30,147 nucleotides of DNA from Burkholderiales bacterium (GCA_035639215.1 DASQYN010000028.1:1-30147), one strand, 5' to 3'. Shown: positions 1,528-26,814, counted from the first letter of the stretch. The notes: generated by a model from the letters alone, not told the origin. Translations and numbers: made by a program.

Positions 1528-3747
<2,220 letters not shown>

Positions 3748-3804
3748 CCGTCCCCCGAGGTGAACCGTTAACCCGATCGTCCTGCCAACCCAAAAGAACC
3801 GCGC

Positions 3805-3833
3805 ATTATAGTTGACCGCTCAAGGGCTTGGAA
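3805..3833 (-). promoter_or_regulatory. Internal sigma-70 promoter for rpoD
   Basis: Perfect TATAAT (3810-3805), with TTCCAA exactly 17 nt upstream at the 3' end of dnaG. Confidence 0.65.
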
Positions 3834-5565
3834 GTGCCCCGCGCAGTCTCTGATAAGCGAGATTCTTCTCGTTGAACAACACCAGATCTTCCTTGGAGCG
3901 CAGGCGGCCGCGAAGCTCGTCGAGCTCCTTCTTGCGGCTGCGCACCTCCAGGCCGGTGAGCGCGTGCTGGAACTCGCCGCGCGCCGACTCGGCGTCGAAA
4001 CCGAGATCTTCCGCATATTTCAGGGCTTTCAGCACGGTTTCAAGGCACGCCTGGCCGGCGAGGGCCTCCATGAGGAGCGCAAAGCTCATGTCCTCCGCGG
4101 CCTCGCATTTCTGCCGGATGGCGAGCAGCGCCTCGGTTTCGGGCCGATCCCCGGCGAGCTGCTCGGCGTCAATGTGCTCGACCAAGGTGAGGTCGGTGAG
4201 GAGCGCGGTCAGCAAGGTCCATTCCAGCGAGGCCGGCGCTTCGAAGCTGCGCCGCTGGGGCGCCGGACGGCTGAACCGCGGCCGCTGAGGCAGCTCGAGC
4301 AGCCGCTCGATCTCGCCTTCCGCGACGCGACCGAGCTGGGCGATCTCGTTGGTGATCTGCAGCCGCAGCGCCGGGGCGGTGATCTTTTGCACGTGCGGCT
4401 TTGCCATCGAGACGAAACGCGCCCGGCCTTCGGGGCTGGCGAGCTCGCCCTCGGAGCGAAGCTGCGCGAGGAGAAATTGCGAGAGCGTCTCCGCCTCGCG
4501 CACCCGGCGCCGGAACTCCTCCGGGCCGTGCTTGCGCACGTAGGTATCCGGGTCTTCGCCCTCGGGCAGGAAGAGGAAGCGGATCGGCTTCGCGTCGGGA
4601 GCGAGCGGCAGGCTGACCTCGAGCGCGCGCCAGGCGGCCTTGCGGCCCGCCGCATCGCCATCGAAGCAGAAGACCAGCTCGTCGGCAAGCCGAAGGAGCT
4701 TCGCCACGTGGACCGGCGTCGTCGCCGTGCCGAGCGTCGCGACCGCGTTGCCGACCCCGTACTGGGCGAGCGCCACGACGTCCATGTAGCCCTCGACCAC
4801 GAGCGCGTACCCGGCGGTGTGGATCGCGTCGCGCGCCTGCACCAGCCCGTAGAGCTCGCGCCCCTTCTCGAAGAGGGGCGTCTCCGGCGAGTTGAGATAC
4901 TTCGGCTCGCCCTCTCCCAGCACCCGGCCGCCGAAGCCGATCGCCGCACCCCGCGCGTTGAAGATCGGGAACATCACCCGATCGCGGAAGCGGTCGTAGC
5001 GCTTGCCCTCGTTCTCGATGACCAGACCCGCTTCCACGAGCGACGGTTGGGAATAGTCTGCGAAAGCCTGCTTGAGTCCTTGCCAATCATCCGGCGCATA
5101 ACCGATCCTGAAACGCGCAGCGATTTCGCCGGTGAGCCCGCGGCTTTTCAGGTACTCGATCGCCCGTGGCGATTTCTTCAGCTCGGCGCGGTAAAAGTCC
5201 ATCGCCTTCTCCAGCAGGGCGCCGAGGTCGCTCTCCCGCTCGCGCCGCGCCGCCTCCTGAGCCGTGGGCGGCCGCGACTCCGGCACCGGCATGCCGACTT
5301 GCGCGGCGAGGTCCTTGATCGCGTCGACATAGCCCATCGACGCGTAGGCCATGAGGAAGCCGATGGCATTGCCGTGCGCGCCGCAGCCGAAGCAGTGATA
5401 GAACTGCTTCGCCGGGCTGACGCTGAAGGAGGGGGTCTTCTCGCTGTGGAAGGGGCAAAGGCCGAGGTAGTTGGCGCCGCCCTTCTTCAGCTGCACGTAG
5501 CGCGAGACGACCTCGACGATGTCGACCCGGTTCAGCAGGTCCTGCTTGAACGAGTCGGGGATCAC
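3820..5565 (-). CDS. dnaG: DNA primase
   Basis: CHC2 zinc finger (CPFH...CFGC), KYLNSPET and TOPRIM EGYMDV/FDGDAAG motifs. Lies between rpsU/yqeY and rpoD. Confidence 0.99.
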   Translation of the reverse strand: MIPDSFKQDLLNRVDIVEVVSRYVQLKKGGANYLGLCPFHSEKTPSFSVSPAKQFYHCFGCGAHGNAIGFLMAYASMGYVDAIKDLAAQVGMPVPESRPPTAQEAARRERESDLGALLEKAMDFYRAELKKSPRAIEYLKSRGLTGEIAARFRIGYAPDDWQGLKQAFADYSQPSLVEAGLVIENEGKRYDRFRDRVMFPIFNARGAAIGFGGRVLGEGEPKYLNSPETPLFEKGRELYGLVQARDAIHTAGYALVVEGYMDVVALAQYGVGNAVATLGTATTPVHVAKLLRLADELVFCFDGDAAGRKAAWRALEVSLPLAPDAKPIRFLFLPEGEDPDTYVRKHGPEEFRRRVREAETLSQFLLAQLRSEGELASPEGRARFVSMAKPHVQKITAPALRLQITNEIAQLGRVAEGEIERLLELPQRPRFSRPAPQRRSFEAPASLEWTLLTALLTDLTLVEHIDAEQLAGDRPETEALLAIRQKCEAAEDMSFALLMEALAGQACLETVLKALKYAEDLGFDAESARGEFQHALTGLEVRSRKKELDELRGRLRSKEDLVLFNEKNLAYQRLRGALPSP

Positions 5566-5575
5566 GCCCCGATTT

Positions 5576-6022
5576 TCAACCCGAAAGCTTGCTCTTGACC
5601 AGACTCGAGACCTTGCCCATGTCGGCCTTGCCGGCGAGCCGCGATTTCAGGGTGGCCATGACCTTGCCCATGTCTTTCGCCGAGCTGGCGCCGCTCTGGG
5701 AGATCGCCGCATCGATCTCCCTTTGGAGGTCGGCGTCGCTCAGCTGAGCGGGCAGGTAGGCGGAGAGCACCTGCACTTCGGCCTTCTCGGCCTCGGCGAG
5801 ATCGTGGCGCGCCGCTTTCTCGAACTGCGCGATCGACTCGCGGCGCTGCTTGAGCATCTTCTCGACCACCGAGACGACGGCGGCATCGTCGAGCTCGATG
5901 CGCTCGTCGACTTCGCGCTGCTTGACCGCCGCGAGCAGCAGGCGAATGGCGGACAGCCGTGCGGCGTCCTTCGCCCGCATGGCGGCCTTCATGTCGTCCT
6001 GGATTTGCTGCTTGAGAGGGAT
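5576..6022 (-). CDS. yqeY: GatB/YqeY-domain protein; start probably the non-canonical ATC at 6022 (first ATG is at 5992)
   Basis: DMKAAMRAKD...KQRRESI..F...AR.DL..E..E...L..YLP and MGKVM motifs. In-frame PLKQQIQDD precedes the first ATG and matches the family N-terminus. Confidence 0.9.
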   Translation of the reverse strand: MPLKQQIQDDMKAAMRAKDAARLSAIRLLLAAVKQREVDERIELDDAAVVSVVEKMLKQRRESIAQFEKAARHDLAEAEKAEVQVLSAYLPAQLSDADLQREIDAAISQSGASSAKDMGKVMATLKSRLAGKADMGKVSSLVKSKLSG

Positions 6023-6027
6023 GCTAG

Positions 6028-6240
6028 TTAATACAGCTTCTGCGGCAGCATCTGGCTGCGCAGGCGCTTGTGGTGGCGCTTCACCGCGGCGGCGAGCTTG
6101 CGCTTGCGCTCGGCGGTCGGCTTCTCGTAGTACTCCCGGGAGCGCAGCTCGGTGAGAAGGCCGGTCTTCTCGACCGTGCGCTTGAAGCGGCGCATCGCCA
6201 CTTCGAACGGCTCGTTTTCCTTGACTCGAACAGTCGGCAT
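6028..6240 (-). CDS. rpsU: 30S ribosomal protein S21
   Basis: [21 protein letters not shown]...[20 protein letters not shown]. Confidence 0.99.
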
Positions 6241-6268
6241 CCAGGCCTCGGCCTCGTTGGGGGCGTGA

Positions 6269-6281
6269 ATTGTATCAAAAT
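6269..6281. promoter_or_regulatory. Overlapping divergent -10 elements for rpsU and tsaD
   Basis: Minus strand: extended -10 TGA-TACAAT (6277-6269). Plus strand: CAAAAT (6276-6281), 7 nt before the tsaD ATG. Confidence 0.5.
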
Positions 6282-6288
6282 CATCGGC

Positions 6289-7290
6289 ATGCTCGTCCTC
6301 GGAATCGAGACCTCGTGCGATGAGACCGGCGTGGCGCTGTACGACGCGGGCGCGCGGCGCCTGCTAGCGCACGCCGTGCATTCCCAGGTCGACATGCACG
6401 AGGCGTACGGAGGCGTGGTGCCGGAACTCGCCTCCCGCGACCACATCCGGCGCCTGGTGCCGCTCGCACGGCGGGTCATGGCTTCTTCCAGCAAGGGATT
6501 CTTCGATCTCTCGGCCATCGGCTACACCGCCGGCCCGGGCCTCGCCGGCGCCCTCCTCGTCGGCGCCTCGTTCGCCGAAGGCCTCGCGCTAGCGCTGGGC
6601 ATCCCCGCGCTTGGCATCCACCACCTCGAGGGCCATCTTCTCTCGCCGCTCCTTTCGGCGCGCGCGCCGCAGTTTCCTTTCGTCGCCCTCCTCGTGTCCG
6701 GCGGGCACACGCAGCTGATGCGGGTGGATCGCCCGGGCGAGTACTTGCTTCTCGGCGAGACCCACGACGATGCGGCCGGTGAAGCGTTCGACAAGACCGC
6801 CCAGGTGCTCGGCCTTGGCTACCCTGGCGGCCCGGCGGTCTCGGCGCTAGCCGATCGCGGAACCCCGGGCCGCCATCGGCTGCCGCGCCCGATGCTCGGG
6901 AGCGGCGACCTCGATTTCAGCTTTTCCGGCCTGAAGACCGCGGTGCTCGGGCTCGCACGTCAGGAAGGCAACGCGGCCCGCGCCGATATCGCTCGCGGGT
7001 TTGTCGACGCGGTGGTCGAAGTGCTCGTGACCAAGGCATTGCGGGCGTTGGAAACCACCGGCTTGACCCGGCTCGTCGTGGCGGGCGGCGTCGGCGCCAA
7101 CCGACAGCTCCGGGCAGCGCTCGACGCGCGTTGTGCGCAAGCCGGATTCGACGTGTATTACCCGGAGCCGGAACTCTGTACCGACAATGGCGCGATGATC
7201 GCCTATGCCGCGGCGCTGCGCCTTCCCGCCGAGGAGGGCCGTGGCGCCTTCACCGTGCGCCCGCGCTGGCCGCTCGAAGCGATCGCCTAA
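6289..7290 (+). CDS. tsaD: tRNA N6-adenosine threonylcarbamoyltransferase TsaD (333 aa)
   Basis: [46 protein letters not shown] and TDNGAM motifs. Start trimmed to ATG 6289. Confidence 0.98.
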
Positions 7291-7880
7291 GTGGTCGTCT
7301 TCTTAGCGCCGATGCGCGACTCGGTCCCGGCCATCAGCCGGGCGATGTTCTCGCGGTGGCGCCAGACGAGAAGCGCGGCCATAGCGAGCACCACGGCGAA
7401 TGTCGCGCCGAAGCCGAAAAGCAGCGCCGCGAAGAACGGCGCGAACGCCGCGGCCACGAGCGCCGCGAGCGAGGAATAGCGCAGGAACGCAGCGATGATG
7501 ATCCAGGTCGCCACCGTGCCGAGGCCGAGGCGCCAGTCAAGCGCGAAGAGCACGCCCGCAGCCGTGGCCACGCCCTTGCCGCCCTGGAAGCGGTGCCAGG
7601 CGGGGAACAGATGGCCGAGGAACGCGGCGAGCCCCGCATACGGCGCCGCTTCGGGCAAATAGCGGCTCGCGACCAGGACCGCGACCAGCCCTTTCAGCGC
7701 ATCGCCGGCGAGCGTCAGCACGGCGGCCGCTTTCCTTCCGGTGCGCAACACGTTCGTCGCGCCCGGATTCTTCGAGCCGTAGCTCCGTGGATCGGGCAGG
7801 CGCATGAGCCGGCTCACGACGATCGCGAACGACACCGAGCCGAGCAGGTACGCAGCGATCGCTGCGAGCAGGGTGGGCAC
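7287..7880 (-). CDS. plsY: Glycerol-3-phosphate acyltransferase PlsY
   Basis: [29 protein letters not shown] and RHRENIARL motifs. Confidence 0.97.
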
Positions 7881-7884
7881 GCGC

Positions 7885-7900
7885 CGATTCTATAGAATCG
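7885..7900. promoter_or_regulatory. 16-bp palindrome forming a symmetric bidirectional -10 (TAGAAT on both strands)
   Basis: CGATTCTATAGAATCG sits inside the 28-bp plsY/folB gap. Confidence 0.65.
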
Positions 7901-7908
7901 TCCGCAAC

Positions 7909-8259
7909 ATGGACGCGATCGTGATCCGCGAGCTGCGCGTCGAGGCGCTGATCGGCATCCACCGCCGCGAGCGGCATGTGGCGCAGACGCTGTCCATCGA
8001 TTTGGAGATCGGCCTGCCGAGCGATGCGGTGTTCGCGAGCGACAAGGTCGCCGACACGATCGACTACGAGCAAGTGGCGCTGAGGATCCGCGCGCTCGCG
8101 GCGAGCGGCCACTTCCGCCTGGTGGAGACCTTCGCCGATCGCATCGCGCAGCTTCTGCTCGGCGAGCTCGGCGCGCCATGGGCGCGCGTCAGCGTCGCCA
8201 AGGTCGGCATCCTCGGCAACGCGAAGTATGTCGGCGTGACGATCGAGCGACAACGATAG
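7909..8259 (+). CDS. folB: Dihydroneopterin aldolase (116 aa)
   Basis: IGIH..E...Q....D, TIDY and LVET motifs plus the conserved C-terminal Lys. Divergent from plsY as in many proteobacteria. Confidence 0.93.
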   Translation: MDAIVIRELRVEALIGIHRRERHVAQTLSIDLEIGLPSDAVFASDKVADTIDYEQVALRIRALAASGHFRLVETFADRIAQLLLGELGAPWARVSVAKVGILGNAKYVGVTIERQR

Positions 8260-10567: not shown

Positions 10568-11046
10568 GGCGTGAGCTCGAACGCGTCCGCGCCGCACTCG
10601 TGGGCGAGCAGCCAACGCTTGGCCTCCAGGAGATAGCCGCCGGTCGAGTGCGCGAAGCCGCCGATGCCGTTCGCGGCGACCACGCGGTGGCAGGGGATGA
10701 CGATCGGCAGGCGGTTGTCGCCGCAGGCCTGGCCGACTGCGCGCGGCTCGCCGCCGAGCCGCCGCGCGAGCTCGCCGTAGGTGAGCGTCTTGCCGCGCGG
10801 GATCTCGCCGAGCGCCGCCCAGAGCCGTCGCTGGAACGGCGTGCCTTCCACGAGCAGCGGCAGGTCGAAGCGCGTGTCGGGATTTGCGCGATACGCCTCC
10901 AGCTGCCTTGCCGCTTTCTCGCCCAATGGGCTCTTCGGGGAGACCACCCGGGCCGAAGGCGGCAGATAGCAGATGTCCGTCACCCGTTCGTCCCGCGTTC
11001 TCACCGCCACTTTCATGCGCGGGAACTCGACGACTACGTCGTACAT
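10564..11046 (-). CDS. ogt: Methylated-DNA-protein-cysteine methyltransferase (160 aa)
   Basis: GTPFQRRLW, TYGELA, RAVGQA and active-site IPCHRV motifs. Confidence 0.95.
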   Translation of the reverse strand: MYDVVVEFPRMKVAVRTRDERVTDICYLPPSARVVSPKSPLGEKAARQLEAYRANPDTRFDLPLLVEGTPFQRRLWAALGEIPRGKTLTYGELARRLGGEPRAVGQACGDNRLPIVIPCHRVVAANGIGGFAHSTGGYLLEAKRWLLAHECGADAFELTP

Positions 11047-12038
11047 AGCTTCTCGATCTGGGCGATCAGCTCGTCGGGCACCTCGATGCCGTGCGCACGC
11101 GCCGATTTCTGCGCCGCGATGCGCCGCGCACCCGGCAGCCGCACTTCCGGGTCGGCGAGCATGGTCGCCACCACCGTCTCCACTCTCTCGAAGTAGCGAT
11201 CCATGCCTGCCAGCGCGCCCGGGTCGATCGCCACGAACGCCTGGCCGATGCGCGGGCGATTGCCCTGCTCGGAGAAGAACGAGTCGGCTTCCGGGCCGAT
11301 CGCCGAGCCGGTCAGGCTCGCGCAGATCAGCTCGAACATGAGCGCGAGCATCGCGCCTTTCGCGCCGCCGATGGGGAACAGGCTGCCATGCTCGATCGCC
11401 TCCTTCGGGTCGGTGGTCGGTCTTCCGTCGCGATCGAGCGCCCAGCCCTCCGGAATGCGCTCGCCTTTGCGCATCGCCATCATGATGCGGCCGCGCACCA
11501 CGGTGGTGAGCGCGAGGTCGATGACGATCGGCTCTGCTTCGCGCCGGGGAAAGGCGGCGGCCACCGGATTGGTGCCGAAGAGCGGCTTCTTCCCGCCCCA
11601 CGGCGGGATCGCGGCGGGCGAATTGGTGAAGGCGAAACCGACCAGGCCGGCCTTCGCCACCGGCTCGAGATGGATCCCGAGCACCCCCACGTGCGCGCTG
11701 TTGGTGATGCCCGAAAAGGCGACGCCGTTGCGGCGCGCCCTCTGGACGAGCTCCTCGATCGCCCACTGCGCCGACATGTAGGGCAGCCCGTCGGCGTTGT
11801 CGATGAGGCACGCCCCGGCCCGCTCGGCCACCATGCGGGGCCGCGCCGCGCCGTCGTTGCGGCCGTTGCGCAGCATGGTGCAATAGAACGGCACGCGCGA
11901 CATGCCGTGCGTGGCAAGCCCCTGCTCCTCGGCGGCGACCAGGTGGCGTGCCGTGGCTTCGGCCATCGCCGCGTGGGCGCCGGCGCGCTCGAGCGCGGTG
12001 CGCGCCAGTCGAAACAGCGTCTGCGCCTCCTGCTTCAC
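11034..12038 (-). CDS. Ldh_2 (type-2 malate/L-lactate dehydrogenase) family oxidoreductase, probably ComC-like (2R)-3-sulfolactate dehydrogenase (334 aa)
   Basis: THG.SR, N..H.G, FTNSP, FGTNP, IPEGWALD.DG.PTTDP and KG...AL motifs. Family call is strong. The ComC-type specificity rests on recalled clade features (GNRPRIGQAF, VRLPGARR) and context. Confidence 0.8.
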   Translation of the reverse strand: MKQEAQTLFRLARTALERAGAHAAMAEATARHLVAAEEQGLATHGMSRVPFYCTMLRNGRNDGAARPRMVAERAGACLIDNADGLPYMSAQWAIEELVQRARRNGVAFSGITNSAHVGVLGIHLEPVAKAGLVGFAFTNSPAAIPPWGGKKPLFGTNPVAAAFPRREAEPIVIDLALTTVVRGRIMMAMRKGERIPEGWALDRDGRPTTDPKEAIEHGSLFPIGGAKGAMLALMFELICASLTGSAIGPEADSFFSEQGNRPRIGQAFVAIDPGALAGMDRYFERVETVVATMLADPEVRLPGARRIAAQKSARAHGIEVPDELIAQIEKLCTT

Positions 12039-12045
12039 GGCTACG

Positions 12046-12055
12046 ATTCTATTCT
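12046..12055. promoter_or_regulatory. Overlapping divergent -10 elements (TAGAAT minus, TATTCT plus)
   Basis: TAGAAT (12051-12046) lies 7 nt before GTG 12038 with no SD. TATTCT (12050-12055) precedes the GAGGAG RBS of the hydrolase. Confidence 0.55.
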
Positions 12056-12078
12056 GCGAATTCGAGGAGACAGAATCC

Positions 12079-12769: not shown

Positions 12770-13333
12770 TCAGCCGAGCAGCGCTTTGCGGAAGCGATCT
12801 TTCAGCGCCACGCCGTCGAGCGGCGGCAGCACCAGCGGCAGCTTCTCGGCGGCAACTTTCACCGTAGCGAACGCCGGGCCTTCGTGCCGGTGAACGCATG
12901 ACCGCAGGTTCTTCAAGCTCGCTTCATCCGTGACGATCGAGGCGTGCGCGAAGCGGCAGGCCTTGGCCACGGCCGCGAGGTCGACGCCGTGGGCGGTGTG
13001 CGTCGCCTGCATGCCGGTCTCGCCGTAGCGCTCGTTGTCGATCACCACGACGGAGAGGTTCTTCGGCTGCTGCACGCCGATGGTCGCGAGCGCGCCGAGG
13101 CCCATCAGCATCTCGCCGTCGCCGGTGAGGACCAGGACCGGGCGCTGCGGCTGCGCGAGCGCCAGGCCGAGCCCGATCATCGCCGCCTGGCCCATCGCGC
13201 CCCAGAGCGGGAAAGACAGATCGCAGTCGCCCGCCGCGGTGATGTCCCAGGCGGTGGACCCCAGTCCCGCTACCACCAATAGCTCGCCACGCTGTTCCAG
13301 GAGCTTCTTCACTACATCACGACGATGCAGCAT
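12770..13333 (-). CDS. ThDP-dependent decarboxylase beta subunit, ComE-like (sulfopyruvate decarboxylase type)
   Basis: GAMG, ThDP motif GDGEMLM...DN and GETGMQ. Stand-alone subunit of about 190 aa, paired with the alpha subunit. Confidence 0.8.
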   Translation of the reverse strand: MLHRRDVVKKLLEQRGELLVVAGLGSTAWDITAAGDCDLSFPLWGAMGQAAMIGLGLALAQPQRPVLVLTGDGEMLMGLGALATIGVQQPKNLSVVVIDNERYGETGMQATHTAHGVDLAAVAKACRFAHASIVTDEASLKNLRSCVHRHEGPAFATVKVAAEKLPLVLPPLDGVALKDRFRKALLG

Positions 13334-13853
13334 TGGTCTGCTCCTGGAAGCTCTTGATGCCGATCACGCGCTGGGCGATGAGCACCGCCTCGGCGCCCTG
13401 CGCCTCGAAGGCGAGCTGCAGCGCGGCGCGCGCGTGTGCGGCGACCGTCTGCGCCTCGCCCGCCTGGCGCACCGCGACGCCCATGGTCTCCAGCACCCTC
13501 GCGGTGTTCTCGCCCATCGGCACCTGCCAGGTGTTGAACTCGCCCTGCTCGCCGCGCATCGTCACGAGAAGCACCAGCGGCAGGCGGCAGGTCTTCACCA
13601 TGGCGAGCGCGTTGACGATGTTGCCCACGCCGCTCGACTGCATGAGCACGACGCTCTTTTCCCCGCCGAGCCAGGCGCCGGCGGCGAGGCCGATGCCCTC
13701 TTCCTCGGTGGTGAGCGGCACGGTGCGCATGCCGGGGTCGGCATGGCAAAGCTCGATCAGGCGCTTGTGCCCGGCGTCGGGCACGTAGCCGACGACGCGC
13801 ACGCCGGCGCGCTTCAGCTCCTGGTGGACTTCGGCGGGCCAGTCAGGCGGCAT
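13317..13853 (-). CDS. ThDP-dependent decarboxylase alpha subunit, ComD-like
   Basis: VPD, TTEEEGIG and LMQSSGVGN motifs (Pyr domain with catalytic Glu). About 180 aa, overlaps the beta subunit. Confidence 0.8.
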   Translation of the reverse strand: MPPDWPAEVHQELKRAGVRVVGYVPDAGHKRLIELCHADPGMRTVPLTTEEEGIGLAAGAWLGGEKSVVLMQSSGVGNIVNALAMVKTCRLPLVLLVTMRGEQGEFNTWQVPMGENTARVLETMGVAVRQAGEAQTVAAHARAALQLAFEAQGAEAVLIAQRVIGIKSFQEQTNAASS

Positions 13854-15570
13854 CTCTCAGGAGGCTTTCTCCCGGCCGCACGCGAGTGAAGGCGACCGGC
13901 TTCATCACGACGTTGCCGTCGGCGGCGATGCTCGTGAAGGCCGATGCTTCGAGGGCGCCGCTTTGCGGAAAATCCTCGCGGAAGTGCGCGCCGCGCGAGT
14001 CTTCGCGCGCCAGCGCCGCGGCACAGATGGTACGGCTCACGGCGAGCAGGCTCTTCAGGTTGAGCCAATCGTGCCAGGTGAGGTTGAAGGCGCGCCCGGG
14101 GTCGCCGATTCCCGCCCGGTCGAGAGACGCCTCGAGAGTGGAAAGCTGCGCGGCCGCCTCCGCGAGGCCCCGCGCGTCGCGGATGATCCCGACCTTCTCC
14201 CACATCACGTCGTAGAGAGCTTCGCGCAAGGGCTCGAGGCTTTCCGGCTTTCGCCCGAAGGGGCGCTCGCAGCGGGCAATCGCTTCCGCGACGGCCGCGC
14301 GGTCGGGTTCGCGCAGCCCCGAATCGCGAATGAACGCGGCCATGCTGTCCCCGGCGACCGCGCCGAAGACCGTGGAATTGGCGACGCCGTTGCCGCCGAG
14401 CCGGTTCGCACCGTGGACGCCTCCCGAGTCCTCGCCGGCGACGTAAAGGCCGGCCAGCGCGGTGGAGCAATCGCCGGCGAACTCCACGCCGCCCATCATG
14501 TAGTGGGCGGTGGGGACGACCTCCACCAGCCCGCCCGCGAGGTCGAAGCCGCAATCGGCGCAGCGCTCGACCATGCCTTTGAACTCCCGGCGCACGCGCT
14601 CGGGACCGAGATGCGCCATCGAAATGTAGACGCCGCCGTAGGGGGTCGTGCGGCCGGCGCGCATCTCGGCAAAGATGGCGCGCGAGACGATGTCGCGCGT
14701 GGCGCGCTCGAGCTTCGGGTCGTAGCGCGCCATGAACCGCTCGCGCTCGCCGTTCAGCAGGTAGCCGCCCGAGCCCCGCAGCCCCTCCTCGAGCACCGTG
14801 CCGGTCATGCGCGTCTGCGGCCCGGCGAGCAGCCCGGTCGGGTGGAATTGCACCATCTCCATGTCGCGCAGCCGCAAGCCGGCGCGCAGCGCCATCGCGA
14901 GGCCGTCGCAGCTCTTGTCGCCCGAGGGGGTGTGGTAGCGATACATGGTCGGTCCGCCGCCGGTGGCGAGCAGCACCGCCTTGGCGCGCACGAGCACGTA
15001 TTCGCCGGTGCGCATGTCGATGAAGAGCACGCCGGCGATCGCGTCATTGGCTTTGTTCCTGATCAGCTCGACCGCCCGGTGCTCCTCGAGCCGGTCGATG
15101 CCGCGAGCCCACACCTGCTCCGCCAGGCGGTTGATGATCTCGATGCCGGTGAGATCGCCCTTGTGGACGGTGCGGTCGAACGTCTGGCCCGCGAACGCCT
15201 TCTGGTGCACGGTGCCGTCGGGATTGCGGTCGAAGAAGCAGCCCAGCTCGTTCTCCAGCTCGTGGATGCGCTCCACCGCCAGCGTGACGAGCTGCCAGGC
15301 GAGATCCTGGTCGGGCAGCCACTTGCCGCCTTCGATGGTGTCCATGAAATGGCGCTCGACGGAATCGCCGGCGGCGAGCGCGACGTTGTAGCCGCCCTGA
15401 ACCATGCGCGTGCAGCCGCACTTGCCGAGCAGGCCCTTCACGGCCACCGTGATCGACGCTGGCTGCGCCGCGCGCCGTTGCGCCTGATGGGCGTGCAGCG
15501 CCGCGAACAGGCCGGCGCCGCCCGAGCCGAGGATCAGGAGGTCTGTATCGCGGGTACTTTGCGGAGCCAT
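13843..15570 (-). CDS. SdhA/FrdA/NadB-family flavoprotein, non-canonical
   Basis: GSGGAG, QGG, QFHPTG, RDIVSRA, HYMMGG, HGANRLGGN and REDSRGAHFREDFP motifs. The covalent-FAD His position is Cys. Confidence 0.93.
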   Translation of the reverse strand: MAPQSTRDTDLLILGSGGAGLFAALHAHQAQRRAAQPASITVAVKGLLGKCGCTRMVQGGYNVALAAGDSVERHFMDTIEGGKWLPDQDLAWQLVTLAVERIHELENELGCFFDRNPDGTVHQKAFAGQTFDRTVHKGDLTGIEIINRLAEQVWARGIDRLEEHRAVELIRNKANDAIAGVLFIDMRTGEYVLVRAKAVLLATGGGPTMYRYHTPSGDKSCDGLAMALRAGLRLRDMEMVQFHPTGLLAGPQTRMTGTVLEEGLRGSGGYLLNGERERFMARYDPKLERATRDIVSRAIFAEMRAGRTTPYGGVYISMAHLGPERVRREFKGMVERCADCGFDLAGGLVEVVPTAHYMMGGVEFAGDCSTALAGLYVAGEDSGGVHGANRLGGNGVANSTVFGAVAGDSMAAFIRDSGLREPDRAAVAEAIARCERPFGRKPESLEPLREALYDVMWEKVGIIRDARGLAEAAAQLSTLEASLDRAGIGDPGRAFNLTWHDWLNLKSLLAVSRTICAAALAREDSRGAHFREDFPQSGALEASAFTSIAADGNVVMKPVAFTRVRPGESLLRDAA

Positions 15571-19213: not shown

Positions 19214-19825
19214 CTAGCCTTTGACGCCGAGCTTGCGCAGCGCCTCGGCGCGGCGGCTGCGCGCCGATCGGTCCACCGCCGCGTAGAGGCTCGCGCCGTG
19301 GCTGTCCATCGCCACGAGCAGCGGGCCGAAGCCGCGTATCCGGAACTTCCACAGCGACTCCGGGTTGAGGTCGTCCAGGTCGACGTCCTCGATCGCTTCT
19401 ATCCACGTCGTCTCGAGCGCCGCGGTGCCGCCGATGATGGCTAGGTATGCGCCGCCCAGGTCCTTGAAGGATTGCAGGGAGCCTTCGCGCAGGCCGCCCT
19501 TGCCGATGAGGAGACGCACGCCGTACTGCTGCATCAGCGGCCGGGTGAAGCGCTCCATGCGGTCGCTCGTCGTGGTGCCGATGCATACCGGCGCGTAGCC
19601 GGTGGGATGGCGCGCGTCCTTCTCGACCTTGCGCACGTTTGGCGCAGTGTGGATCACCGCGTGACCGGAAAGCTCGAAGCGCGTCTTTCGCCCGCGGTCG
19701 AACATGTGGATCTGCGTCGCGTCGCGGATGCCGAACAGCGTGCCGTTGAGCGTTACGGTGTCCTGCACGCGCAGCGCCCGCGCCTGCGGCTCGCTGATCG
19801 GCATGTCGAAATCGTAATGCGCCAT
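19214..19825 (-). CDS. Fe-S hydro-lyase beta subunit (class I fumarase C-terminal / TtdB-like, 203 aa)
   Basis: G.L...RDA, GTTTS.RM, IGKGG and FGPLLVAMDSHG.SLY motifs. Confidence 0.92.
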   Translation of the reverse strand: MAHYDFDMPISEPQARALRVQDTVTLNGTLFGIRDATQIHMFDRGRKTRFELSGHAVIHTAPNVRKVEKDARHPTGYAPVCIGTTTSDRMERFTRPLMQQYGVRLLIGKGGLREGSLQSFKDLGGAYLAIIGGTAALETTWIEAIEDVDLDDLNPESLWKFRIRGFGPLLVAMDSHGASLYAAVDRSARSRRAEALRKLGVKG

Positions 19826-19827
19826 CG

Positions 19828-20484
19828 TCAGCCCTTTTCGCTTCTGTGCCGATCGATCCAGTATCCGGCGGCGCCGGTCACCAGCCCGCCAGCGAGCCCG
19901 ACCCAGGCGATCGCGGAGACGCTCGGCGGCGGCGGGCCGAAGGCGGCGCCGATGTAGGCGAGGACGAGAAAGGCGAGCAGGCCGTAGAGCGCCCAGTGCC
20001 CGGTGCGGTCGAGGGCCTGCGAGCCGGCAAGGTAGAAGCGGAAGCCGGCGACGAAGACCGCGCCTTCGACCAGCAGCGTCCCCGCGACCGAGTTCCACAG
20101 GCCGAAGCCGACCTTCAGGTCGCTGCCGGGCGCGAGCGGCAGGTCGGGCCGGTGCACCACGAGGTCGAGGAACCAGTGCGACAGCACGACGAGCGCGACG
20201 ACCGCCGCCGTGAGCCAGCGCCGGCGCACCGCGAAGTACAGGCCGCCGAAGACCAGCGCCCAGACGACGCTCATCAGCAGGCTGTGGCTCCACGGGTAGT
20301 GCTGGAAGTCGAGCGGCGTAAAGCGCGTGATGCCCGGCGCGATCGCCATCGTCTCCATGCCGGCGAAGAGGAAGATCGGCCAGAGGAGATCGACCAGCTC
20401 GCAGGCGATGAAAAGCGTGCCGAGCGAGACGGTGGGGGCAGCGCGCTTCGCGGCGAACGCGACCCCAAAGTGGCCGATGAACAT
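19828..20484 (-). CDS. Membrane-bound metal-dependent hydrolase (YdjM-like)
   Basis: MFIGH, DLLWP, PWSHSL and SHWFLD.VVH motifs with several TM helices. Confidence 0.7.
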   Translation of the reverse strand: MFIGHFGVAFAAKRAAPTVSLGTLFIACELVDLLWPIFLFAGMETMAIAPGITRFTPLDFQHYPWSHSLLMSVVWALVFGGLYFAVRRRWLTAAVVALVVLSHWFLDLVVHRPDLPLAPGSDLKVGFGLWNSVAGTLLVEGAVFVAGFRFYLAGSQALDRTGHWALYGLLAFLVLAYIGAAFGPPPPSVSAIAWVGLAGGLVTGAAGYWIDRHRSEKG

Positions 20485-21050
20485 CAGCCGCCGAGCAGCT
20501 GCTGCTTGATGTCGTCCTGCACCGGATGCTCGCCGAGCCAGATGCGCAGCAACGCGCGATAGAAGTCCTCGCCGGCGATCGGCTGACCGGCCGGCTGCCC
20601 GTCGATCGAGACGCGCGTCGCGCCGGCGCTCCAGTCGAGCGCGATGGTCATGCCCTTCTTCGCCTCCTTCACCTGCGCCATGATCGCCTCGAGCTGCTTC
20701 ACCCGCGGCTCGAGCGCCTGGTAGTCGGCCTCCGAGTGGTTGGCCTTGAGGCCTTCGACGAGCGCCTCCGAGAACGTGTCGGCGCCGACGTCGCGCAGCA
20801 TGTGGAGCGAAACCCGTTTCGGGCCGGCGAGCGCGAGCACGGCCGCCGCGTCCTTCGTCTTCTCCGGCAGGTAGAGGCCGATCACGTAGACCTTGAAGAA
20901 CAGCCGCTTGCGCAGGCCCGCGCCGTTCAGGACCAGCTCGCGCGCTTCCACCTGCGCCTTGTCGGCGAGCTGCACGCCGGCGACTTCCGCCGCTTGGCCG
21001 GCGAGCGGGAAAACCAGGAAGGCAACCAGGGCGAAGGCTCTAAAAGCCAT
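20484..21050 (-). CDS. Exported chalcone-isomerase-fold protein
   Basis: Signal peptide, LVLNGAGLR..LFFKVYVIGLYL and F..ALL.IWLG..PV motifs. Confidence 0.85.
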   Translation of the reverse strand: MAFRAFALVAFLVFPLAGQAAEVAGVQLADKAQVEARELVLNGAGLRKRLFFKVYVIGLYLPEKTKDAAAVLALAGPKRVSLHMLRDVGADTFSEALVEGLKANHSEADYQALEPRVKQLEAIMAQVKEAKKGMTIALDWSAGATRVSIDGQPAGQPIAGEDFYRALLRIWLGEHPVQDDIKQQLLGG

Positions 21051-21912
21051 ACTCGAGACCCGAGGGGCGGAAAGTGGCGCGCGCGCGGCGCGCGGAATGG
21101 CATTGCATGTTCACCGCCACCGGGTTCATGGTGATGTGCGTCGCGGCGGTCTCGACGTGCACGGCGAAGGCGGTGCCGTCTCCGCCGAGCCCCTGGGGTC
21201 CTACGCCGAGCCCGTTGACCGCCGCGGTGAGCTCGGGCTCGAGCCGCGCGCCCTCCGGATCGGCGCAGCTCGTGCCGAGCGCCCGGGTCGCCGCCACCTT
21301 GGCAAGGTGCACGCACAGGTCGGCCGTGCCGCCGATGCCGACGCCGACGATGGTCGGCGGGCAGGTCTTGCCGCCGGCGTCGAGCACGCAGTCGATGACG
21401 AAGCTTTTCACCGCGTCGACGCCCTCGGCCGGCACCGCCATGCGCAGCCACGAGTTGTTCTCGGAGCCCGAGCCCTTCGGAATCATCTCCAGGACGAGCG
21501 CCTCGTCCTCGCTGAAGTCGATGTTGATCACCGGCACGCCGCGTCCCGTGGAGGTGTGCTGGTTCTGGCGCGTCAGCGGATGCACGACCGAGGAGCGCAG
21601 CGGATGCTCTCGCGTCGCGCGCTCGCAGCCGCGGCGGATCGCCTCCTTCAGCGCGACGCCGTCCACTTCGACGCCGCGGCCGATCCAGACGTTGTAGATC
21701 GGGATGCCGGTGTCCTGGCAGAGCAGGTTGTCGGTCGACTCGGCCACCGCGATGTTGCGCATCATGGTGCCAAGCATGCGCTTCGCGCCGGCATCGCTCT
21801 CGCGCGCCGCGAGCGCGTCGAATCCCTGCTTCACGTCCGGGGGCAGCTGCTTCAGCGCCCGGATGTACAGCGCCTTCGCCGCTTCCTCCAACTGGCGAAG
21901 GTCGATCCTCAT
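21040..21912 (-). CDS. Fe-S hydro-lyase alpha subunit (class I fumarase N-terminal / TtdA-like)
   Basis: CQDTG, KGSGSEN, CPP..VGVGIGG, G.GPQGLGG and QCHSARR motifs; three cluster cysteines. Confidence 0.93.
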   Translation of the reverse strand: MRIDLRQLEEAAKALYIRALKQLPPDVKQGFDALAARESDAGAKRMLGTMMRNIAVAESTDNLLCQDTGIPIYNVWIGRGVEVDGVALKEAIRRGCERATREHPLRSSVVHPLTRQNQHTSTGRGVPVINIDFSEDEALVLEMIPKGSGSENNSWLRMAVPAEGVDAVKSFVIDCVLDAGGKTCPPTIVGVGIGGTADLCVHLAKVAATRALGTSCADPEGARLEPELTAAVNGLGVGPQGLGGDGTAFAVHVETAATHITMNPVAVNMQCHSARRARATFRPSGLEYGF

Positions 21913-22922: not shown

Positions 22923-22928
22923 ATTCTA
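22923..22928 (-). promoter_or_regulatory. Putative internal -10 (TAGAAT) overlapping the upstream TAG stop
   Basis: TAG-AAT, followed by AAGGAGG and GTG 19 nt downstream. Confidence 0.45.
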
Positions 22929-23228
22929 CAGCGCGAGGGCGAAGGCGAGCCCGACCGCGAGCGCGAGCGCCGCGGCGGCCGCGGCGAGGCTCTTCTGCCA
23001 TTCGTGCCAGTCGAGCAGCTCGATCGCGAGAACGCGCAGGCCGGCGCCGAGATGCACGGCGAGCAGCACGACGATCCCCCACTCGGCCAGCTTGACGAGC
23101 GGCTGCTCGGTCCAGGCGAGGAACGACTGCAGCTCGAGCCCCTTGCCGAGCGCCCAGAAATGCAGCGGCAGGAAGGCGGCGAGCGCCAGCCCGGAGACCC
23201 GGTGCAGAAGGGCGAGCGCCTTGCTCAC
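22926..23228 (-). CDS. SdhC-like cytochrome b membrane anchor (100 aa)
   Basis: LHRVSG and VH...GLR motifs, three TM helices, GTGA coupling. Confidence 0.85.
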   Translation of the reverse strand: MSKALALLHRVSGLALAAFLPLHFWALGKGLELQSFLAWTEQPLVKLAEWGIVVLLAVHLGAGLRVLAIELLDWHEWQKSLAAAAAALALAVGLAFALAL

Positions 23229-23563
23229 AGGAACATCGTGAGCGCCGCGCGCAGGCCCATCCACGCGAGAAGCGCGGCGAAAAGGGCGAGCGCGATGTCG
23301 CGGCCGCGGCCGCGCCAGCGCAGCCACTCTATCGCGATGGCGCGAAGGCCAATCGGCGCATGCACCGCGACGGCGAGCACGAACACCGAGTAAAAGGCGA
23401 GCCAGGCGTGATTGCCGTGGGTGCGCGCCTGGATCTCGGCGGCCGAAAGCCCGCCGCGCACCGCATAAACGATCGTGGCGAGGTGCACCACGACGCACAC
23501 GCCGAGCACCGCCGCGCTTATGCGCTGCGCGAGCCAGAGCGTCGTCTCCGAGCGCGTGCTCAC
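23225..23563 (-). CDS. SdhD-like membrane anchor (112 aa)
   Basis: QRISA, VVHL and VHAPIGLR motifs, three TM helices, GTGA coupling to the Fe-S subunit. Confidence 0.85.
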   Translation of the reverse strand: MSTRSETTLWLAQRISAAVLGVCVVVHLATIVYAVRGGLSAAEIQARTHGNHAWLAFYSVFVLAVAVHAPIGLRAIAIEWLRWRGRGRDIALALFAALLAWMGLRAALTMFL

Positions 23564-24276
23564 AGCTCGCCCTCCAGCGCGGCCTTCGCGACGGCGCGCT
23601 TCAACCCCGCGATCGAGGCAGTAGGCGACAGGTGCTTCGGGCAGCGCTGCGTGCAGCTCATGTGCGTGTGGCAGGCATGGCAGCCGGCATCGCCGGCGAC
23701 CGCGCGAAGGCGCGCGAGGCGCTCCCGGTCCCGTTCGTCGTTGACCAGCGTCCAGGCGCGGTTGAGCGCCGCCGGTCCGAGATAGTTCCGGTTCCACGCG
23801 ACGACGTCGCAAGCGGCGTAGCAGACGCCACAGCCGATGCATTCGATTCCGGCGTCTACCGCTTTTCGATTCTGCGTCGACGGGGGGACTTTCGCGAAAT
23901 CATCGCTGCGTCCGCGATCGCCGGCGAACTGGCCCTTGGCGCTTGCCCACTTGTCGAAAAATTCGCGCATGTCGGTGACGAGGTCGCGGATCACCGGCAG
24001 ATTGCGCAAAGGCGCAACCGTCAGCTCATTCTTCTGGCAAACCCGGTCCACGTGCGTCCGGCAAGTCCAGCGCGGCGCGCCGTTCACCGTCATCGCGCAC
24101 GAGCCGCACATGCCGACCCGGCAGGCGTAGCGATAGGCGAGCGTCGGATCGAGCGCGCGCTGGATGTGGATGACCACGTCGAGCACGGTCTGGCTGGGAT
24201 GCCGCGGCACCGAGAAGGCCTGGAATTCGCCTTGCGCCGCTCCTCTCCAGACGCGCACTTTCAGGGTGGCGCTCAT
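23560..24276 (-). CDS. SdhB/FrdB-like iron-sulfur subunit (238 aa)
   Basis: CRVGMCGSC...C [2Fe-2S], CIGCGVCYAAC [4Fe-4S], CHTHMSCTQRCP [3Fe-4S type]. ATGA coupling. Confidence 0.95.
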   Translation of the reverse strand: MSATLKVRVWRGAAQGEFQAFSVPRHPSQTVLDVVIHIQRALDPTLAYRYACRVGMCGSCAMTVNGAPRWTCRTHVDRVCQKNELTVAPLRNLPVIRDLVTDMREFFDKWASAKGQFAGDRGRSDDFAKVPPSTQNRKAVDAGIECIGCGVCYAACDVVAWNRNYLGPAALNRAWTLVNDERDRERLARLRAVAGDAGCHACHTHMSCTQRCPKHLSPTASIAGLKRAVAKAALEGEL

Positions 24277-25349
24277 CGCACCGTCACCTGCAGGCGCTGC
24301 ACGGCATTGTTGCCCATGCCGCCACGGTTCCAGTCCGGCTCGAGCGGCTGCTCGGCCCCCTCGGCGTCGCCAGCGCGGCACGCGAGCTCGTGCTCGCCCG
24401 GCAACGCGTCCCATGTTGCGCGCCAGCGCTGCCAGGCGAAGCGCTGCGAAGGCGGCTCGACCTCGGCGGCGCGCCACTCGCCGTCGACACCGAGCTCGAC
24501 GCGCGTCACCGCCACTCCGGCCCCCGACCAGGCGCGCCCTTCGAGCGTCACCTTCCCGGCGTCCAACAGCCGCCGCCCCGTATACCAATCGGCGATGCCG
24601 GGGGGCGCGATGAGCGACTTCACGCGCGCGTGCCGCACCGGCGTACCCGCCTCTCCCGGTTGCCTGGTATAGCGATAGCCGACGACCTGCTGATAGCCAT
24701 CGAACGGCCGGTCGAGCGCTTCGATGCGCGAAAGCCATTTCACGCTCGCCATGCCGAACCACCCCGGAACGACGAGCCGGAGCGGCGCACCGTGCTGCGG
24801 GGCGAGCGGCTGGCCGTTCATCGCCCAGGCGAGCAGCACCTCCGGCTGCATCGCCTCGGCCACGCTCAGGCTGCGGCCGAAGTGATGCTCCACGCCCGAA
24901 TCGAAGCCGCGATCGGCGCCGAAGAAAGCGATTTCCTTCGCCCCGCCTGGGACCCCAGTGCGTTCCAGGACGGTACGCAAAGCGACACCGGTCCACTCCG
25001 CCGTGCTCACCCCGCCGTACCGCCACGGCATGCTCGGATAGCGCGGGGTGAAGCCGGCGCGGCCGTTTCCCGCGCATTCCAGCGTGACGCGCAGCGTCTT
25101 CGCCGGCATCGCCTGCAGGTCGGCGAGCGAGAACTGGCGCTCGCCGACCGTCAAGCGGTAGGCGGCGGCCTCGAGCCGCGGGATGTCGAAATGCGAGAGC
25201 GTGTAGTGCAGCCCGACCGGCGTCACGTCGTAGCGCAGCGCCTCGAGCGGCAGCGAGACGTGGCGCAGCGCGAGCGCCACCTCCTCAGCCGTGAAGGGGC
25301 CGTCGATATGCGCGCGCCGCTGGCGCTCGAAGAACGGATGCGGCTTCAG
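24273..25349 (-). CDS. Sulfite oxidase-family molybdoenzyme without heme domain (358 aa); start probably CTG at 25349
   Basis: Mo-ligand [12 protein letters not shown]...[18 protein letters not shown] and a C-terminal dimerisation domain. Confidence 0.9.
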
Positions 25350-26515
25350 GCGCTTTCGTACAGCCTGGTCAGGACGAACTCGCGATGGCCGAGCGCCTCG
25401 GCGGCGGTGAGGCGGCCGTTGGCGGTGCGGAACAGGCACTCGAGCAGCTTGTCGCCCGCCTGGTCCGGCGTCAGCTCTTTCCTCAGCAGCCCGGACACGT
25501 CCACGTCGATGTGCTCCGACATCGTGCGCACCGTGCGCGGGTTCGCGCACAGCTTGATCACCGGCAGGATCGGGTTGCCGATCACATTGCCCTGGCCGGT
25601 GGGGAAGAGATGCACCGCGTAGCCCGAGGCGGCGCACAGCGTCACCATCTCGGCGGCCGCCGAAGAGGAGTCCATGAACCAAAGGCCGGGGCCGGTCGGC
25701 GTCTCGGCCTTGTCGAGCACGCCGTCGACCATGCACTTGCGGCCGATCTTCTGGATGTTGCCGAGCGCCTTCTCCTCGATGGTCGTGAGGCCGCCGGCGA
25801 TGTTGCCCTTGGTCGGCTGCGAATCCGAGAGGTCGTTGGTCTTGTGGCGGTTGATCACGTCCTGATAGCGGTCGAACATGAACTGGAAGCGCTTCCTCAC
25901 CTCGTCGTTGCGGCAGCGCGCGGCGACGAGGTGCTCGCCGCCGGTGAGCTCGGTGGTCTCGCCGAAGACCAGCGTCACGCCGTGCGGGTAGAGCTTGTCG
26001 AAGGCGTTGCCGACGGTCGGATTCGAGCCGCAGCCGGAGGTGGTATCGGACTCGCCGCACTTCGTCGATACCCAGAGGTCCTTGAGCGGCCGCTCCTCGC
26101 GGCGCAGCTCGCTCGCCCATTGCACGAGCTCCTTGGCCTTCTTCGAGGCGCGCAGGATGGTGTCGTGGTCGCCGTGCTGCTCGATGCCGAAGTAGGCGAC
26201 CGGCTTGCCGGTCGCCGCGATGCCGTCGGCGACCTTCTTCGCCCACTGGTCCTCGATGCAGATGACGATCACGGCGGCGACGTTCGGGTTGGCGCCCGTG
26301 CCGATCAGCGTGCGAAAGTGAAGGTCGAGGTCGGCGCCGAACTGCAGCCGCCCGTAGGGGTGCGGCAGCGCCATCGTGCCTTTGACGGCGTTCTCCACCG
26401 CCCGCGCGGCCGCGTTCGAGAGATCGTCGACCGGCAGGATGATGACGTGGTTGCGGACGCCGACGCGCCCGTTCTCGCGCTTGTAGCCCCAGAAAGTCGC
26501 TTTCGAAAGTTCCAT
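25346..26515 (-). CDS. suyB: (2R)-sulfolactate sulfo-lyase beta subunit (UxaA family, 389 aa)
   Basis: [54 protein letters not shown] and [10 protein letters not shown]. These match the SuyB subgroup as recalled. Directly follows a SuyA-type SAF subunit. Confidence 0.88.
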
Positions 26516-26532
26516 TTGCGTTGCCACCCTCG

Positions 26533-26814
26533 TTACCACCTTTTGGTCTTGAGGTTATGCACGTGCAGATGCTCGCCCTTGGCGATCGGCTGCACCACCT
26601 TGCCGATGTCGACGCCGTACTTGATCACCGTGTCGCCCGGCTTGTAGTCGCGCAGGGCGACCTTGTGGCCGATCGGAATGTCGCTCTTCGCGAGCACCTG
26701 GAGGTCCTTGTCGTCCTCCATGATCCAGCCCGACAGAGGCTGGCCGGCCTTCACACCTTCGACGACGACCACGCCGACGCCGTCGCCTTCCTCGTGCACT
26801 ACGAAATGAATCAC
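26533..26814 (-). CDS. suyA: (2R)-sulfolactate sulfo-lyase alpha subunit (SAF domain, 93 aa)
   Basis: FVVH...[26 protein letters not shown] and [10 protein letters not shown] motifs. Confidence 0.88.

Follow-up and report, generated by a model that had tools for sequence, protein, structure and literature searches.

The window analysed here is a 30,147-nucleotide stretch of DNA from a Burkholderiales bacterium (GCA_035639215.1 DASQYN010000028.1:1-30147). On its minus strand, at positions 19,214 to 21,912, it carries the genes for the alpha and beta subunits of a class I fumarase-family hydro-lyase. We propose that this pair has been recruited to a sulfonate operon, where it would act as a 3-sulfoacrylate hydratase giving (2R)-3-sulfolactate. 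The proposal draws on gene context and family logic, and we give it about an even chance of being right. For a wider reading we would go slightly below even: that the pair represents the first sulfonate-specialised enzyme of the class I fumarase type and that, together with an Sdh-like dehydrogenase, ComC and ComDE, it would form a sulfo copy of the succinate-fumarate-malate-oxaloacetate arm, supplying SuyAB with (R)-sulfolactate and needing no racemase.

A conserved Sdh-like operon beside suyAB

We compared 82 loci with the proteins of the window (80 genome loci and 2 from other gammaproteobacterial orders). Neighbouring genes were found by tblastn with the window's proteins and by precomputed gene calls, and the counts for each gene take only loci with enough flank. 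De novo clustering of open reading frames (ORFs) from the 82 loci was abandoned, as the high-GC DNA gave too many antisense ORFs. SuyB was present in 48/51 loci, the beta subunit in 64/66, the SdhB-like subunit in 63/65, the SdhA-like subunit in 52/57 and Ldh_2 in 41/48; TAXI-TRAP was present in 32/59 and ComDE in 22/52. The SorA-like gene, found in 8/54 related loci, is accessory to the cluster. Compact operons have the order sdhB-sdhC-sdhD-alpha-beta-sdhA, which places the hydro-lyase inside the Sdh-like operon. The SdhA-like gene directly follows beta in many loci, and a version with 13 called genes agrees with the window at every gene. TctC-type tricarboxylate receptor genes also lie within the operon.

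The SuyB of the window is 80% identical to the Cupriavidus pinatubonensis SuyB of the hpsN-hpsO-suyAB cluster (2,3-dihydroxypropane-1-sulfonate [DHPS] pathway) and 66% identical to the Paracoccus versutus SuyB, whose gene adjoins suyZ; judged by sequence, the window suyAB is a genuine SuyAB orthologue. The top NCBIfam match of the Ldh_2 gene product is L-sulfolactate dehydrogenase, with a score under the cut-off. The known SuyAB/ComC/SlcC pathways (Paracoccus, Chromohalobacter, C. pinatubonensis) share with the window the SuyAB orthologue, an R-specific lyase, and Ldh_2. However, their sulfolactate comes from DHPS, sulfolactaldehyde or cysteate, and none of them forms it by hydrating an alkene.

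The module also occurs outside the Betaproteobacteria. In two other gammaproteobacterial orders it occurs with a TauABC-like ATP-binding cassette importer, GntR and a D-2-hydroxyacid dehydrogenase (2-Hacid_dh), and a search of a plasmid collection found carriers in Methylobacterium and Rhodococcus. Plasmid pMRAD01 of Methylobacterium radiotolerans JCM 2831 (NC_010510.1, 229-245 kb) has the order sdhBDC-alpha-beta-sdhA-thiamine diphosphate (ThDP) enzyme, then tauE, then suyAB-dctA-2-Hacid_dh-Ldh-gntR; its alpha and beta pair is MRAD2831_RS61530/RS61525. Plasmid pRHL1 of Rhodococcus jostii RHA1 (NC_008269.1, 792-818 kb) carries a more distant module (alpha 50%), located ∼20 kb from tauE, Ldh_2 and suyAB. 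Close copies, under the annotation of fumarate hydratase or tartrate dehydratase, are present in many cultured Hyphomicrobiales. Across several phyla, the hydro-lyase group sits in an SdhABCD-like operon beside genuine suyAB.

A second module type was also seen (loci L088-L091; genomes G132, G064, G152 and G073). Its Sdh-like subunits are 65-73% identical to those of the window, and the Sdh-like genes are followed by a very divergent class I hydro-lyase pair, in which alpha has CADTG or CGDTG for CQDTG and the loop HKGGL, and beta has TATASFRF for GPTTSxRM. SuyB was not found in two of these four genomes (99% complete). The product of this module type may be a different one.

A related Sdh-like module with another hydro-lyase, in genomes without SuyB, would suit the idea that the window pair hydrates some other substituted fumarate analogue, supplied by the Sdh-like complex, with SuyAB merely co-located on a sulfonate island. 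The analogue could be sulfofumarate (from sulfosuccinate), and the product sulfomalate or an unstable alpha-hydroxysulfonate shedding sulfite. The TctC-type receptors in the operon point the same way, as do the full conservation of both fumarase carboxylate-binding sites and the acceptance of extra substituents by class I fumarases (mesaconate, tartrate). We consider this explanation unlikely, given that suyAB belongs to the same translationally coupled operon at nearly all loci where it could be scored, that the SuyB with 80% identity comes from a sulfolactate-forming pathway, that the ComC/ComDE-like genes point to C3 sulfonates, and that a dianionic C3/C4 acid would suit the DctA and TauABC-like importers.

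Subunits, iron-sulfur cluster and active site

The closest solved structure for both subunits is the fumarate hydratase (FH) of Methanocaldococcus jannaschii (MjFH), with 7XKY_A matching alpha (227 bits, E 1.6e-66) and 7XKY_B matching beta (103 bits, E 1.7e-28). Matches to the family are far beyond chance. As in this archaeal two-subunit enzyme, the Fumerase and Fumerase_C domains sit on separate chains. The three 4Fe-4S ligands are all kept, and all lie in alpha (C65, C184 and C271, equivalent to MjFH C60, C182 and C269). Also kept are 9/9 of the residues that hydrogen-bond S-malate in MjFH and in the L. major fumarase (LmFH): Q66, D67, R106 and G149 of alpha (MjFH alpha Q61, D62, R102 and G147), and R34, T85, T86, R89 and K109 of beta (MjFH beta R32, T80, T81, R84 and K104). 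Alpha scores 299 bits against the NCBIfam fumarate hydratase equivalog PRK06246 and passes its cut-off of 276; beta reaches 120 bits on the NCBIfam FH beta model (cut-off 269) and passes no equivalog cut-off. As far as sequence tells, alpha and beta form an intact and working two-subunit class I [4Fe-4S] fumarase-type hydro-lyase. An earlier reading of this DNA (the original prediction) had described both subunits as intact with cluster ligands, and the Pfam and Protein Data Bank (PDB) matches bear this out.

The same prediction drew attention to three variant motifs, HIT, QCHSARR and GTTTSDRM. All are present, as THIT at alpha 258-261, QCHSARR at alpha 270-276 and GTTTSDRM at beta 83-90, but THIT and GTTTS are shared by the nearest ordinary relative (P0128) and its beta. 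It is H272 and S273, with a few other positions, that are largely typical of the clade, the usual motif in the family being QCWAARR; CHSARR is invariant across the clade and Methylobacterium. In total, 11 positions are clade-specific, N62, N74, S121, N153 and A159 among them. We considered these residues as a sulfonate signature and dropped the idea, because the Rhodococcus copy is without them; they are not used as evidence here.

Compared with MjFH, the clade of the window has LRSS for LRPN, ENN for ENM and QCHS for QCWA in alpha. In beta it has GTTTS for GPTTS, preceded by a six-residue loop insert that resembles TPEGYA of E. coli FumA. Unlike MjFH, the window enzyme is bacterial, is a paralogue beside housekeeping fumarases in an Sdh-like/suyAB operon, and has a sulfonate as its presumed substrate. 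FumA and FumB, which also have mesaconase and D-tartrate dehydratase activities, share the fold and the chemistry and tolerate substituted substrates with S configuration at C2. Their chains, however, are fused and only ∼30% identical to the window pair, and the source genome has a separate FumA.

Fumarase type or tartrate-dehydratase type

MjFH takes S-malate and S,S-tartrate alone, whereas E. coli TtdAB uses R-malate and R,R-tartrate, and the only clear sequence difference that separates FH from L-tartrate dehydratase (L-TTD) is a proximal loop, KGXGS in FH and AGGGC in L-TTD (Bellur et al. 2023, bioRxiv 10.1101/2023.06.17.545066). The alpha loop reads KGSGS, as in the MjFH type, and not AGGGC as in E. 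coli TtdA. Both subunits fall well under the NCBIfam Ttd cut-offs (alpha 160 bits on the TtdA model, cut-off 365; beta 131 bits on the TtdB model, cut-off 264), and alpha matches E. coli TtdA with 120 bits and 32% identity, against 227 bits to MjFH alpha.

TtdAB is nevertheless, like the window pair, a bacterial two-subunit member of the family, and some results speak against a clean assignment to the fumarase type. Beta resembles TtdB (38% identity) no less than MjFH beta, and it scores slightly higher on the TtdB model (131 bits) than on the FH beta model (120). The approximately unbiased (AU) test leaves a grouping of the clade with E. coli TtdAB unrejected (p 0.71 for alpha, 0.20 for alpha and beta together). 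Furthermore, a swap of the loop motif did not switch enantioselectivity (Bellur et al., bioRxiv 10.1101/2023.06.17.545066). The phylogeny against TtdAB and the fumarases, to which the original prediction had pointed, recovered the clade, including the Methylobacterium copy, in a concatenated alpha and beta tree (support 99/99); in the free trees the window pair did not group with TtdAB, and the deep branches formed a polytomy with long branches. Homology favours a fumarase-type product, short of proof.

The stronger stereochemical argument comes from pathway logic. Domain scans of the window genes showed no SlcC-like gene beside SuyAB and Ldh_2, so that an S product would be stranded. This dead end, along with the KGSGS loop, the low TtdA score of alpha and the lack of a tartrate transporter or TtdR, makes it highly improbable that the pair is a tartrate-dehydratase-type enzyme of mirror-image preference, with (S)-sulfolactate as product or L-tartrate as substrate, even though the AU tests and the TtdB affinity of beta agree with such an enzyme and some related clusters have a D-2-hydroxyacid dehydrogenase beside Ldh_2.

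Proposed reaction and pathway

Homotaurine is one source of 3-sulfopropanoate; in the gut, sulfoquinovose and DHPS also give rise to it. In the proposed pathway the Sdh-like complex would oxidise 3-sulfopropanoate, which is succinate's sulfonate isostere, yielding (E)-3-sulfoacrylate. Only 3-sulfopropanoate, via 3-sulfoacrylate, would yield sulfolactate by dehydrogenation and then hydration.

In class I fumarase, K491 and R471 hold the C1 carboxylate, the C2 hydroxyl touches the catalytic acid and the labile cluster iron, and R173, Q134 and R421 flank the C4 carboxylate. Since all residues of the C1 and C4 sites are kept in the window pair, it is reasonable to place a carboxylate in the C1 site and a sulfonate in the C4 site. 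The substrate carboxylate would then be bound by beta K109 and R89, with the C2 hydroxyl on the labile iron of the cluster, and the sulfonate would be bound by alpha Q66 and R106 and beta R34. Anti addition of water at C2, as in fumarase, would give 3-sulfolactate with an (S)-malate-like configuration. According to a Cahn-Ingold-Prelog check (OH > CH2SO3 > COOH), the (S)-malate arrangement is (2R)-3-sulfolactate; the malate-like arrangement takes the (2R) name because CH2SO3 outranks COOH. The R form is the one on which SuyAB and ComC act (PMC12890257, PMC12421959), and on this point the original prediction was correct. Its claim that fumarase-type hydration would supply exactly this enantiomer gains from the KGSGS loop, the FH scores and the SuyAB context, and loses from the unrejected affinity with TtdAB.

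(2R)-3-Sulfolactate would be cleaved directly by SuyAB to pyruvate and sulfite. Alternatively, ComC and ComDE would convert it to sulfopyruvate and then to sulfoacetaldehyde. No sulfoacetaldehyde acetyltransferase (Xsc) above the TIGR03457 cut-off was found in the source genome, a 92%-complete bin (best score 314 bits vs. 676).

The original prediction also stated that no SlcC-type partner is present. This holds for the lineage of the window, but other lineages carry a second dehydrogenase, either a 2-Hacid_dh beside Ldh_2 (two gammaproteobacterial orders and Methylobacterium) or an HIBADH-type gene between Ldh_2 and suyAB (Rhodococcus); these are called SlcC-like by family and position only. 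They may serve imported S-sulfolactate and so do not contradict an R product. They do show that carriers of this cluster are not racemase-free as a rule.

Sulfoacrylic acid is a natural intermediate of bacterial coenzyme M biosynthesis, where a class II superfamily enzyme makes it (PMC9457059). XcbC of that pathway resembles the proposed hydratase in handling sulfoacrylate and a sulfolactate derivative (PMC9457059), but it belongs to the aspartase/fumarase (class II) superfamily with an unrelated fold, eliminates phosphate from phosphosulfolactate and is biosynthetic.

A paralogue distinct from the housekeeping fumarases

The same genome encodes, on other contigs, a fused FumA (C242), a class II FumC (C248) and a housekeeping SdhA (C405). 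When the class was sampled with a single genome per family (201 families), the matches were at 100, 78 and 74% identity and then dropped to ≤42%. Among the genome matches, proteobacterial clade members are at least 74% identical; the Methylobacterium copy is 65% identical and the next full-length relatives are at most 52% identical. A library of 50%-identity representatives gave the same picture, with a clade representative at 78% and the next full-length protein at 52%. This 52% relative (P0128) has sugar-acid and amidohydrolase genes as neighbours, and no sulfonate genes were seen in its gene neighbourhood. No further carriers were found at E ≤ 1e-60 in a 400-genome sample of the phylum. The alpha and beta subunits thus constitute a tight orthologous group, distinct from the housekeeping fumarases of the genome.

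Several observations weigh against a 3-sulfoacrylate hydratase. Every fumarate-binding residue is unchanged and no active-site feature demands a sulfonate; alpha passes the NCBI 'fumarate hydratase' equivalog cut-off; and the clade-specific substitutions are absent from the Rhodococcus copy. Conservation of Ldh_2 extends to clusters lacking ComDE, which a direct route through the R form leaves unexplained, and three other lineages have a second dehydrogenase (2-Hacid_dh) beside Ldh_2. The bin that holds the window is a fragmented one (693 contigs, metagenome).

The unchanged catalytic and binding residues and the curated cut-off passed by alpha would also agree with an ordinary fumarase acting on fumarate and malate, a spare copy travelling with a spare complex II, and public annotation is indeed fumarate hydratase. 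We regard this as quite unlikely, because FumA, FumC and a true SdhA are already encoded elsewhere in the genome, the score of beta stays under every equivalog cut-off, two positions conserved in SdhA are changed in the partner flavoprotein, and in four lineages the pair is linked with suyAB, tauE and sulfonate importers, while its nearest ordinary relative (52% identity) has no sulfonate context.

The Sdh-like flavoprotein and the direction of the arm

At residues 52-60 the SdhA-like flavoprotein has GCTRMVQGG where SdhA has SHTxxAQGG, so that Cys53 replaces the histidine that binds flavin adenine dinucleotide (FAD) covalently. At residues 260-269 it has LEEGLRG where SdhA has xTEGxRG, with Glu261 in place of the active-site-loop threonine. 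Cys53 and Glu261 are invariant in 56 clade loci, the second module type, Methylobacterium and Rhodococcus, whereas the housekeeping SdhA of the same genome keeps SHT and TEG. The best-scoring NCBIfam model for the flavoprotein is the fumarate reductase TfrA.

Loss of the histidyl-FAD bond abolishes succinate oxidation in E. coli FrdA. With this precedent, the cysteine in place of the FAD histidine casts doubt on the oxidative direction, which is a further point against the proposed pathway. The arm might run reductively, or Cys53 might bind FAD in another way (an 8-alpha-S-cysteinyl link would be speculation). The reaction of the hydro-lyase is identical whichever direction the arm runs.

If the arm runs in reverse, (R)-sulfolactate would be dehydrated to sulfoacrylate, which a Frd-like complex would reduce to 3-sulfopropanoate as an electron sink, in a sulfo version of the malate-fumarate-succinate branch. 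Besides the flavoprotein, which has no covalent-FAD His and scores best on TfrA, this has a parallel in the fermentation of L-tartrate by E. coli through TtdAB and fumarate reductase, and 3-sulfopropanoate is a known excreted end product. On the other side, SuyAB of the same operon would compete for sulfolactate, the importers, sulfite exporters and sulfite dehydrogenase fit full mineralisation, and Cys53 might, speculatively, still bind FAD covalently. We judge the reverse direction decidedly improbable.

Gene layout and coordinates

The window is a contig of 68% GC (C28) from a metagenome bin of 4.36 Mb (693 contigs, 92% complete), and the nearest kin of the source genome are uncultured soil Burkholderiales. 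The coordinates of the features are given in Table 1. The interval 19214-21912 (-), which the original prediction treated as a hydro-lyase, does contain alpha and beta, but it holds four genes: two further ones, a Chalcone_3 gene whose product bears a signal peptide and a YdjM-like gene, lie between the subunits and had gone unmentioned. From alpha to beta, the first two genes overlap by 11 nt, the second and third share a TGATG overlap, and 2 nt separate the last two.

Table 1. Positions of genes and active-site motifs in the window.
Feature	Position	Strand	Basis or equivalent
Alpha, class I Fe-S hydro-lyase, 290 aa	21040..21912	-	Pfam Fumerase (PF05681), E 1e-85
Alpha C65-Q66-D67: cluster ligand, C4-site glutamine, catalytic acid	21712..21720	-	MjFH C60/Q61/D62, LmFH C133/Q134/D135
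Alpha K146-G-S-G-S150 proximal loop, fumarase-type KGXGS	21463..21477	-	Alignment
Alpha C184, second cluster ligand (KTCPPT)	21361..21363	-	MjFH C182
Alpha C271-H-S-A-R-R276, third cluster ligand	21085..21102	-	MjFH C269; usual QCWAARR
Secreted chalcone-isomerase-like protein, 188 aa	20484..21050	-	Pfam Chalcone_3 (PF16036), E 9e-49; hydrophobic N-terminus
YdjM-like polytopic membrane protein, 218 aa	19828..20484	-	Weak Pfam YdjM, 25.7 bits
Beta, hydro-lyase, 203 aa	19214..19825	-	Pfam Fumerase_C (PF05683), E 7.7e-28
Beta R34, C4-site arginine	19724..19726	-	LmFH R421, MjFH beta R32
Beta G83-T-T-T-S-D-R-M90: catalytic base T85, plus T86, R89	19556..19579	-	MjFH beta T80/T81/R84
suyA, predicted (2R)-sulfolactate sulfo-lyase subunit	26533..26814	-	SuyAB pair spans 25346..26814
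suyB, predicted (2R)-sulfolactate sulfo-lyase subunit	25346..26539	-	Identity to known SuyB
SorA-like molybdenum sulfite dehydrogenase	24273..25301	-	Between suyB and sdhB
SdhB-like Fe-S subunit and Sdh membrane-anchor genes	22926..24330	-	Pfam Fer2_3, Sdh_cyt; NCBIfam; sdhB start approximate
SdhA/FrdA-like flavoprotein	13843..15570	-	Pfam FAD_binding_2 and Succ_DH_flav_C
ComD/ComE-like split ThDP decarboxylase	12770..13853	-	Pfam TPP_enzyme_N, TPP_enzyme_C
Ldh_2 (ComC-like) dehydrogenase	11034..12078	-	Pfam Ldh_2, E 1.5e-99; start approximate

A 359-aa ORF (19214-20293) was considered as beta and rejected as a high-GC read-through artefact: Fumerase_C covers only its residues 153-339, and its upstream part overlaps the YdjM-like gene in a different frame. 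The true beta start, placed by the PDB alignments, is the ATG at 19825 (MAHYDF...), with an AAGGG motif ahead of it. The resulting length of 203 aa compares with 202-209 aa typical of homologues.

The gene for a secreted protein thus splits the two subunit genes of a cytoplasmic Fe-S enzyme and shares the 11-nt overlap with alpha. The secreted chalcone-isomerase-like gene lies between alpha and beta in 55/79 related loci; an atlas look-up of its product returned only 'chalcone isomerase family'. The YdjM-like gene, present in just 4/74 related loci, looks like a recent lineage-specific insertion in which translational coupling was kept.

In E. coli K-12 (3204-3210 kb), plsY and tsaD enclose ttdR-ttdAB-ttdT, which has folB as a neighbour and is located upstream of rpsU-dnaG-rpoD. 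The cluster described here is flanked likewise by rpoD, dnaG, tsaD, plsY and folB, in the window (1528-8259) and in many related loci. The common housekeeping flank may be a coincidence or a shared insertion hot spot.

Significance

The route from 3-sulfopropanoate through sulfoacrylate to sulfolactate was described for Roseovarius nubinhibens in a Konstanz thesis which, as cited in PMC11489063, names no enzymes. According to PMC11489063, bacterial degradation of 3-sulfopropanoate is otherwise unreported, and a 2026 review states that its mechanism is still unclear (PMC12890257). No enzyme for sulfoacrylate hydration was named in the literature searched. If our reading of the pair is right, it would supply one of the two missing steps of 3-sulfopropanoate degradation, and the substrate range of class I fumarases would widen from carboxylates to a sulfonate; the full sulfo-arm reading would close the open question of 3-sulfopropanoate mineralisation. 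The question is directly testable, with the cluster in the cultured strains M. radiotolerans JCM 2831 and R. jostii RHA1, and the enzyme would be a natural test case for what sets enantioselectivity in the class I fumarase family. Since the genes are annotated as 'fumarate hydratase' or 'tartrate dehydratase', the pathway would be invisible to annotation-based surveys of the sulfur cycle.

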